Positions 26,801-29,800 of a stretch of DNA of 64,000 nucleotides are shown piece after piece. Source of the stretch: Escherichia coli (lineage in GTDB: Bacteria > Pseudomonadota > Gammaproteobacteria > Enterobacterales > Enterobacteriaceae). The stretch is from the NCBI RefSeq assembly GCF_001677475.2, contig NZ_CP015229.1; one strand, 5' to 3'. The stretch's first letter is position 1. Every line of letters begins with the position of its first letter. The position numbers are program-made.

Positions 26801-29800
26801 AATGAACAATTTAAATCAGCATTCCTTAAACTCATTCAGCAAAACCACGAAGCAGTAAAATCCATTCAGGCTGAGCCGTATGGACACCTCACACCACCAA
26901 CTCTCGACATTATGTCCAGAATATTAACACCAGCCATGCTTCTACGTCTGAAAGACAATATAAATGACTGGTTAAACGAAGAATTAAACTACCTTGAATG
27001 TGAGTGGGATCATCATTACGCCAAATCACAAAAAGAACGCATCTTCCGTCGATTATCCGGCAACAGATAACGAGCCAGCTTATATACGTCCTTTAAGATA
27101 AGTCAGTCCTGGATGAAACCAGTAAGCCGGCACTTTTTTAAAGGGCGGATTATCAAAATCACGAAGAAGAGCCTCCCGCACAACTGCATCCTTGTCCGCA
27201 CCACTGGCCAGCGCTTCAATCTCAGCAGCTACCTGCAGATATCCCATGCAACGACCAATGCGCTTCATTAGTCCCTGCTTTTTATTGTTCTTCAGGTAAT
27301 CAATGGCAAATTCAATGAGCGCCTCACTGTGCTGGTGCGATGCTGGTGTTACTTTTCCATCTTCACGGATCGTGATATTCCAGTCATCGCTTGTCACAAT
27401 AAAAGATGGCCGATTATCCCCCCATTCCTGGTCTTTATCCGGTGCAGACGCAATAAAATAACGTTTATTGCCTTCCTCTCCGGCACTTTTAACTGTAATG
27501 GAGTACTTTTCTGACAATGCGGTCGGTAAAAACTTTTCCTGCAAAATCTTCGCAAAGGTCCTGCGAGCAATTTTGATGCAATCATCGTAAAACGCTGCTT
27601 CCTGCTCATCGCGGCGTTTTTTTTCATCTTCAGAAACCATCAGCACCGACAGTTTTTTATTCAGTTCAGTGATTTCATTTTCCAGGCAACTTATGCGCTG
27701 ATTCATTTCTTCATGGTTCATCGTCTACTCTCCCCGCGCCGCCTTACGCCGGTCTTCTTTAATTTTGAAATACAGGTTCGTCAGGTACGTCAGCAGACCA
27801 AACAGCAGACTCCCCAGCACGCCTATTGCCACCCACTGGGACGGAGAGACTTTGTCCAGCAGCTGCAGTAACCAGTATCCCGTCCCCACCGCTGACGTGG
27901 TGTATGACACACCTGTTGTGATTTTTTCCATCTGGTACATACCCCGTCTCCCGTTATCCGGAAGCTGACAACAATAAAAAAGCCACCCGTTAATTACTGA
28001 TGGCTCTGATGCATAAACGTCATCATTCCTGACCGTTATGATTGACAATGGTTATCATTTTTATATAAAAATACTCCCGATATGTGTTACATATCATTTC
28101 TCCACGGGGAATATCCCCACGCCAGCGTCAGACTCGTTTTCCCGTTCTCTTCTGTGCTGGCGTTTTTTTTATTATGATGTCGGTACATTTATCTCCAGCA
28201 CCAGGCTTTCAATCTCAACACCATACGCGGAATTTTTGGGCGTAAAAAATCCCCTCCGGTGAGGGGATTTGCTTATGTAAACATTTACACTGCTTACCTG
28301 CATGGTGCCGGGTGCCTCCCGGTGAATTCAGTATCAGCACCTGAATCCGCAATTATCCCATATACCTACTTGCTGATTGCCCCTCCGCACAGGGGGATTC
28401 ACCATGCGAGATTTTTTTAACAAATGCTCAGTCTGACAGGCAACTGTCAACTGACTGAATAGTGACACGGATTACACTTGTTACCCACATACCACGAATC
28501 AGGTTATTCTTCAGTCATTATTAAACTGCACTTCAGCAAATCCAGAGCCTGATTCACAGGTATTGGATTTGATTGTTACGGTCATTCCTGTTAACTGTGC
28601 ACTTTGTAACAACGGCTGCAAATTCCACCGGTTAGTCCAGTATTCTTTCCCGTCAACCTTTACAGTAAATGTGTTATCCCCATTATATTTGGAAAACTCA
28701 ATTTTACCTTTAGCACAATCCGCCGCCATTGCATTAACAGAAACCAATGCAAATAAAACCGCCATAAACATCTTCTTCATACTTAACTCCTTTCATTCAC
28801 CCGTTGTATATAATGACTGAGACTTTCTGTTCAGAAAGGCTGCTGCTGTATTACTTTCCCATAATGTATTGTTTATTTTTATAACTGGCCTGTCGCCACT
28901 TATCTGACATTTTGGTTGCATCTCTTCATTCACGTAGCGAACCGAACGCGCCCCCTGATGATGGCAATTCAGAATAACCGCTACAGTACCCAGTATTGCT
29001 GATATATTATTAAAGGATATTCTCCCCACTCTGACACCATCCTCTCCCCGATACTCCGGAAGCACATTGCTGATTCTCCCCCAGTTCAGAGTGAGGTCCA
29101 CGTCTTCCGGCGTCATCGTATAAACAGGAGCAGTTTCAGACAGTGCCAGACGAAATTCTCTCTGTATTTGCCTGAACCGTAAGGCTTCTGCTGTAACAGT
29201 GACAAAACGCAGAACTGCTCTGGATGCATCTCTGGTCATTGTATTACCACTGAACTCCATTAACGCCAGATATGATGAAACCAGTGAGTGACGACTGATT
29301 TGCATTCCGGAACGTTCCAGCGCTGCGACACGTTGCAGCGTGGTATAACTGCTGTCCGTTGTCATGGAAACAGTTGTCACACCGGGCACTGATATATGTG
29401 TAAAATCTGAAAAACGGTAGAAAGTATTTGTGGCCGTATTAACGAACCCGGCCACATATAAATTATTTTGCTCAATAATCAGACGAAGATGGTCAAAACG
29501 CGCCTCATAGATATCAAGCCCTCGGATATCCACAGAAATATAACTACCCGGTGGAGTATGATTAATAACAGATACCGATGTAGCCCCCTGAGATATATGC
29601 TCAAGAGGGGTCGATATTTCTGTCCGTATACTATTTAACGAAGATACATAAGTTTGTTGAGTCGAAAAGTCTATCGTAAATTCCCGGGAATAGGATACCG
29701 AAGAAAAGCCCAGTAACAGGCACAGTACCCATTTAAACAATATACACTTCATATACAGGTATTCCTTTTGGCTGAAGTAATCAGCACCAGACCCGGCGCA

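Follow-up and report, generated by a model that had tools for sequence, protein, structure and literature searches.

The stretch of DNA analysed here, 64,000 nucleotides (nt) of Escherichia coli contig NZ_CP015229.1 (RefSeq assembly GCF_001677475.2) and hereafter called the window, is a lambdoid Shiga toxin (Stx) 2g-converting prophage. On its minus strand, the genes S (27725..27940), R (26094..26627), Rz and Rz1 make up a lysis cassette that is very likely orthologous to S-R-Rz/Rz1 of phage 933W and homologous to S21-R21 of phage 21. S encodes a protein of 71 or 68 residues with two transmembrane domains (TMDs) that belongs to the P21 holin S family, and R is a predicted signal-anchor-release (SAR) endolysin. 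An original prediction, made from the sequence alone, had proposed a pinholin/SAR-endolysin strategy rather than the lambda S105/R type, and our analysis agrees: S is a class II holin close to phage 21 S, and R carries an N-terminal SAR-type segment. The module is real but not new, being of the ordinary, already described 933W type of Stx phages. Pinto et al. (2021) predicted a pinholin together with a SAR endolysin in ~99% of 279 Stx phages (PMC8136144), and a 2023 study assigned the holins of Stx2a phages to the pinholins of the P21 holin S family (PMC10462455). Because it is the norm among Stx phages, the arrangement is unremarkable, and the Stx2g module is just one more instance of the published rule by which nearly all of these phages use a pinholin with a SAR endolysin. 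Of mild interest is the natural variation of the dual start of S and its bearing on the antiholin model.

The S reading frame begins at position 27940 of the minus strand with ATG TAC CAG ATG GAA AAA and ends with a TAG stop (27727..27725). A second in-frame ATG lies at 27931, with two codons between the starts. Initiation at Met1 (27725..27940) gives 71 codons and a product beginning MYQMEK, the equivalent of S21-71. Initiation at Met4 (27725..27931) gives 68 codons and a product beginning MEK, which aligns at its start with Met4 of S21, is the equivalent of S21-68 and is presumed to be the active pinholin. OL657228, the phage 21 reference that we used, has the labels 'antiholin' for S21-71, 'holin class II' (the product of a dual start) for S21-68 and 'SAR endolysin' for R. 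Window S matches the PF04971 profile, 'Bacteriophage P21 holin S', with 112.6 bits over profile positions 1-63 of 64, for a gathering cutoff of 26 bits; it also matches PHROG holin families, and the Pfam search returned no match to lambda-type holins. As a reference for annotation we took a complete E. coli genome from RefSeq that is 99.6% identical over the 5-kb region, and there the equivalent coding sequence of 216 nt is labelled 'class II holin family protein'. Window S is 96% identical to S of 933W. Alignment with phage 21 S, which had been suggested as a check, gives 75% identity over all 71 residues, gapless and with both Met1 and Met4 kept. An in-frame TTG at 28048, which opens a frame of 107 residues, was considered as the start of S and rejected; it has no backing from homologues or annotation, and the two RNA hairpins described below lie inside the added part.

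The original prediction had named three transmembrane helices in the holin as evidence against itself. Window S has two hydrophobic segments and not three, since the 8-residue loop between them and the 13-residue cationic tail (+3) leave no room for another helix. TMD1 (residues 9-27) is weak and rich in Gly, Ala, Ser and Thr, with a Kyte-Doolittle value of 0.47 and a Gly/Ala/Ser/Thr fraction of 0.53, compared with 0.21 and 0.58 in S21, and TMD2 (residues about 36-58) is strongly hydrophobic (Kyte-Doolittle value 1.59). We also aligned 23 members of the S family that are 54-96% identical to window S, phi80 and a Klebsiella phage included. Within TMD2, the alignment shows no variation at G40, T51 and T54 and a conservation of at least 90% at S44, G48 and N55; window S has all six. 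These small and polar residues were reportedly assigned by Pang et al. to the packing of the pinhole helices and to the lumen. Pinholins of the S21 type form heptameric pinholes of ~2 nm, which depolarise the membrane and do not let a folded endolysin pass.

R encodes a 177-residue lysozyme of glycoside hydrolase family 24 (PF00959, 86 bits) with an N-terminal SAR-type segment at residues ~1-24. Its alignment with R21, proposed alongside that of S, places the triad E35-x8-D44-x5-T50 in register at 34% identity overall; R of 933W is 94% identical, of equal length and has the same triad. The N-terminus of window R reads MNTKIK (+2) followed by YGLSAAVLALIAAVAPAP, half of which is Gly, Ala, Ser or Thr, a composition characteristic of SAR segments. 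The 93 homologues that could be analysed share this N-terminal layout; next comes a near-invariant ILDQFL-EKE that leads to Glu35. In an AlphaFold2 model of R the mean predicted local distance difference test score (pLDDT) is 88.7, and residues 11-40 score 91-97. Full-length R21 (3HDE) and DLP12 RrrD (4ZPU) can be aligned with the model over 169-174 columns, the SAR-truncated R21 (3HDF) over only 140, and the fold also matches P22 lysozyme. The model fits an N-terminal segment that would be incorporated into the soluble enzyme in the manner of R21-type activation, without the help of a SAR cysteine. 933W R is one of three reference SAR endolysins in experiments of the Young laboratory, where the 'definitive test' of a SAR endolysin is whether a pinholin, or depolarisation, frees it from the inner membrane (PMC9239132); for window R, SAR behaviour is predicted from its sequence. 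That a pinholin would be paired with a SAR endolysin had also been proposed, and both genes are indeed present, but R lies outside the interval of S to which the motif had been assigned, 1097 nt away from it.

Disulfide control of the P1 Lyz or Lyz103 type was considered for R and rejected, as its first 51 residues are free of Cys and the catalytic position is occupied by Asp44 rather than by Cys. R has eight cysteines elsewhere (52, 74, 109, 118, 136, 150, 157 and 172), which are invariant or at least 90% conserved in the family, and R21 has four. The eight cysteines suggest up to four periplasmic disulfides, which may serve regulation or stability.

Based upon the homology with phage 21, we propose the following course of lysis. 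R would be exported through Sec and then held inactive, tethered in the inner membrane, and S would build up in the membrane with its two TMDs in place. The weakly hydrophobic TMD1 would then, at a set time, leave the bilayer, and TMD2 would form small heptameric pinholes. Depolarisation would free R, whose N-terminal segment would refold into the body of the enzyme in the manner of R21, and the spanins Rz and Rz1 would disrupt the outer membrane last. At the level of translation, a small hairpin would occlude the Shine-Dalgarno (SD) sequence of Met1, and a free second G-rich element would serve Met4. The long form of S would differ from S21-71 in carrying three extra uncharged residues, MYQ, instead of the cationic MKS.

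The two starts are a conserved property of the family. M1 and M4 are invariant columns in the 23-member alignment, and in a survey of 120 cluster representatives, 89 of them with sequence upstream of Met4, a Met is found at -3 in 88 of the 89. The residues that follow this Met are more variable. Extensions that contain Lys or Arg number 46 (MYR 24, MKS 10, MLR 6, MHR 3, MMK 2, MKF 1), and 42 have neither (MYQ 33, MDQ 3, MNQ 3, MFQ 2, MHQ 1). The MDQ allele, acidic at position 2, represents a cluster of 985 members and is very abundant in E. coli, and S of phi80 and of the Klebsiella phage (52-57% identical) retain MYRM[D/E]K. For allele frequencies, and for the spacing of S and R, we used 80 close relatives of window S from a scan of viral contigs, a set which at 94-100% identity serves these two ends and not deep covariation. 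MYQMEK is found in 62 of them. The other 18 read ATA CAT CAG ATG and have neither Met1 nor an in-frame upstream start, which leaves the 68-residue form only. The Met1-less loci (L044, L047, L057, L059, L066, L067, L068, L079, L083, L086, L089 and others) have a completely different sequence upstream. Given the invariance of M1 and M4, the Met pair does not appear to be a product of chance, and it would seem that the spacing of the starts is under selection and the extra charge is not. In all probability, Met1 and Met4 both serve as translation starts.

Two SD-like elements precede these starts. A hairpin that CUUCCG-GAUAA-CGGGAG (27964..27948, minus strand) can form has the SD sequence GGGAG in its 3' arm, 7 nt before Met1, and a second G-rich run, GGGGU (27945..27941), is unpaired and lies 9 nt before Met4. 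Computed folds (centroid or minimum-energy) place an SD hairpin of different sequence at the equivalent position in phage 21 (UCCGUU/GGCGGA), in mEp332 and in the Klebsiella phage (CACCCGC/GCGAGGUG). In phi80 and in the Met1-less alleles, an equivalent pairing of the SD sequence was identified by visual inspection, the minimum-energy fold being a different one; at locus L007 the start region of S folds differently. The window hairpin resembles lambda sdi, which suggests that it may occlude the first SD sequence and, by analogy, play a part in the choice of start. Further upstream, 30-65 nt from S, a GC-rich, terminator-like hairpin is followed by a run of U (27973..28007, minus strand). When the window and nine related loci were folded, the stem was found to be kept through many compensatory changes (GAGCCAUC/GGUGGCU, GGGGCUGUCGG/CUGAUGCCCC, GGACCAUCGG/CCGGUGGUC). 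Phage 21 has no such hairpin directly upstream of S. The element is probably an intrinsic terminator, which would shield the lysis genes from transcription that is not antiterminated.

Several points weigh against reading the cassette as a close functional counterpart of that of phage 21, starting with the fact that, for this allele, the reading is built on sequence, models and homology. The open reading frame (ORF) that lies on the plus strand between S and R might affect the expression of R. In R itself, the uncharged hydrophobic core is short, at 15-18 residues, and the AGA|SAP of many homologues, including 933W R, conforms to the -3/-1 rule of signal peptidase I. Because these homologues satisfy the rule, sequence rules alone leave room for cleavage, and both features speak for ordinary secretion of R by way of a cleavable signal peptide. 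T4 RI provides a published precedent, in that its predicted SAR domain turned out to be a cleaved signal (PMC8385771). Yet window R has only two A-x-A sites after its core, AVA|P and APA|P, and the Pro at +1 of each is, by the sequence rules, incompatible with signal peptidase I; the N-terminal segment is modelled with high confidence and the model aligns over more columns with the full-length than with the truncated R21, and its near-identical counterpart in 933W has been handled experimentally as a SAR endolysin. Moreover, the timing of lysis by a holin would be pointless if an active lysozyme were secreted constitutively. We therefore regard cleavage and secretion of R as improbable. The proposal that the N-terminus is a SAR segment and not a cleavable signal peptide is favoured by the two sites of this allele and weakened by its AGA|SAP homologues. 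It is very hard to believe that S is a canonical large-hole holin and that the hydrophobic segment of R is incidental. Nothing specific favours this, except that the hole size of window S is a predicted property; a class II, two-TMD protein that is 75% identical to the prototype pinholin and keeps the conserved TMD2 residues, is without a Pfam match to lambda-type holins and has a partner with an export signal of its own argues for the pinholin assignment.

The remaining objections concern the long form of S. The original prediction had taken MYQMEK to yield an antiholin and a holin, as in phage 21; the two starts and the conservation of Met1 and Met4 uphold it in part, but Lys2 is absent. Lys2 and Ser3 of S21-71 are Tyr and Gln in window S, and the net charge of the N-terminus is 0 in both window forms, compared with +1 in the long and 0 in the short form of S21, so that MYQ lacks the extra positive residue in the long product that marks the dual-start type. 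According to a review, Lys2 in S107 and in S21-71 adds a positive charge that retards the externalisation of TMD1 and thereby makes the antiholin (PMC9636201). Systematic mutagenesis of the S21 N-terminus in the FuN-screen likewise found that the translocation of TMD1 is delayed by cationic side chains and is faster with acidic or hydrophobic ones (bioRxiv 10.1101/2021.04.20.440580). Since MYQ adds no positive charge, 'antiholin plus holin' is not simply transferable from phage 21, and to judge from the sequence the antiholin effect of the MYQ long form is expected to be weaker than, or different from, that of S21-71. The long form also appears to be dispensable in nature, because 18 of the 80 close relatives do without Met1. 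The z-scores for folding of the translation-initiation region are not significant, and the one argument for the SD hairpin is its recurrence at one position in divergent loci. Taken further, these observations could mean that only one start is used in vivo (Met1, as in RefSeq, or Met4), that the M-x-x-M is present by descent and that the pinholin operates without a functional antiholin. The missing charge, the abundant alleles with an acidic position 2, the Met1-less alleles and the published mutagenesis are all in keeping with a single start. We nevertheless find it doubtful, as both Met residues are invariant from 52% to 100% identity, a range over which the replacement of an internal Met by Leu or Ile would be expected; as two SD-like elements are well spaced for two ATGs, with a hairpin over the first only; and as three extra polar residues could slow the exit of TMD1 without any charge.

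If both starts are used, the long isoform of Stx phages may still not be a charge-based antiholin. It may act through its length or polarity, be neutral or, in the case of MDQ, trigger faster, and the dual start and the SD hairpin may mainly set the level of translation. Start alleles (MYQ, MYR, MDQ, Met1-less) could then tune the release of Stx, because the timing of lysis affects toxin release. We put this forward tentatively, as a possibility and not as the expected outcome. Stx, which lacks a secretion signal, is released when the phage lyses the cell; how much toxin is set free, and when, is therefore controlled by the S/R/Rz module. Variation of the dual start, where the extension may be uncharged, cationic or acidic, or Met1 may be missing, could thus alter the timing of lysis among lineages of Shiga toxin-producing E. 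coli, and so could the frequent insertion of genes between S and R.

Comparison with the cassettes of known phages places the window closest to 933W in its lysis proteins. In 933W, too, S starts with MYQMEK, and the cassette lies downstream of stx and is followed by Rz/Rz1. However, R of 933W begins 4 nt after S, whereas the window has a gap of 1097 nt with two ORFs; 933W has nanS-p between stxB and S and the ant antirepressor gene between R and Rz, and the window has neither. The N-terminus of R reads AAVAPAPE in the window and AAGASAPE in 933W, and 933W is a podovirus, whereas the window prophage has head and tail genes of the lambda type. Phage 21 shares with the window the length and register of S, Met1 and Met4, a weak TMD1 with a strong TMD2, an identical C-terminal tail, the fold of R with E35, D44 and T50 in the same positions, and an SD hairpin upstream of Met1. 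It differs in its MKS extension (MYQ in the window), in an R with an unrelated SAR sequence and half as many cysteines, and in the overlap of the S stop codon with the R start codon. Lambda has in common with the window a dual start with two codons between the starts, an upstream hairpin (sdi) that occludes the SD sequence and the order S-R-Rz/Rz1 in the late operon. In contrast, lambda S (S105/S107) is a class I, three-TMD, large-hole holin of another family, and lambda R, a cytoplasmic protein, lacks an N-terminal TMD.

The gap between S and R (26628..27724) holds ORF213 on the minus strand (27080..27721) and an ORF of ~118 residues on the plus strand (26714..27070). Because two unrelated ORFs separate them, S and R need not be contiguous. 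The ATG of ORF213 lies 4 nt past the stop of S, and the two genes are apparently translationally coupled. ORF213 matched only PHROG 1085, of unknown function, and nothing in Pfam, NCBIfam, PADLOC or the PDB. The plus-strand ORF, a 'hypothetical protein' in RefSeq, likewise matched only PHROG 1853 (unknown) and nothing in the same four databases. Homologues of ORF213 occupy the equivalent slot in Stx2 phage 86 (orf5) and in LC567841, and homologous inserts are present in phage 86 and in two Stx2a phages. Among the 80 close relatives of S, about 47 of which had an R that could be located, the gap is 4 nt in only 6 and 399 nt in 17, and in the rest it is roughly 830-1307 nt. Accessory (moron) genes are evidently often inserted at the S/R junction, which makes it a hot spot inside the lysis cassette. 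ORF213 is intact in the window (642 nt); in the closest RefSeq genomes it measures 641 nt and is annotated as a frameshifted pseudogene (for example, L008 2581..3221).

Beyond R, two small ORFs (25612..26016, minus strand; RefSeq, PHROG 1115) precede Rz. One is YdfR-like (25756..25938 or ..26016), and the other encodes 43 residues of hydrophobic character (25612..25743) and overlaps the start of Rz with its 3' end. Neither had a match in Pfam, NCBIfam, PADLOC or the PDB, and the PHROG family is listed as 'unknown function'. Rz, the i-spanin (25148..25615; PF03245, 165 bits), has embedded within it, in the +1 frame, the gene of the o-spanin Rz1 (25210..25395; PF06085, 74 bits), with the lipobox LVVSAC; both are on the minus strand. 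The virion genes downstream of Rz/Rz1 are of the lambda type and comprise Nu1, gpA, a lambda-family portal, capsid E, tail tube V, tape measure H and J. The original prediction of lambda-like virion genes joined to a non-lambda lysis module is thereby sustained, as this Nu1-to-J set is of the lambda type and the lineage of the lysis module differs from that of lambda S/R.

In minus-strand order, tRNA genes come first, ahead of stx2g. They are followed by stxA2g (28793..29752; PF00161) and stxB2g (28511..28780; PF02258), which are annotated as subunits A and B of Stx2g in the 99.6% identical RefSeq genome, and the genes that come next on this strand are those of the lysis cassette, an order also known from other Stx phages. 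The interval of ~570 nt between stxB2g and S contains two pseudogene remnants according to RefSeq and, unlike that of 933W-type phages, no nanS-p esterase gene. In a 99%-identical prophage of other bovine E. coli (L009, NZ_CP169309, 3802..4394), precisely the slot of stx2g A/B is occupied by TerB-family and DUF3927 genes. The two prophages thus differ by an exchange of cargo at one position between the tRNA genes and S.

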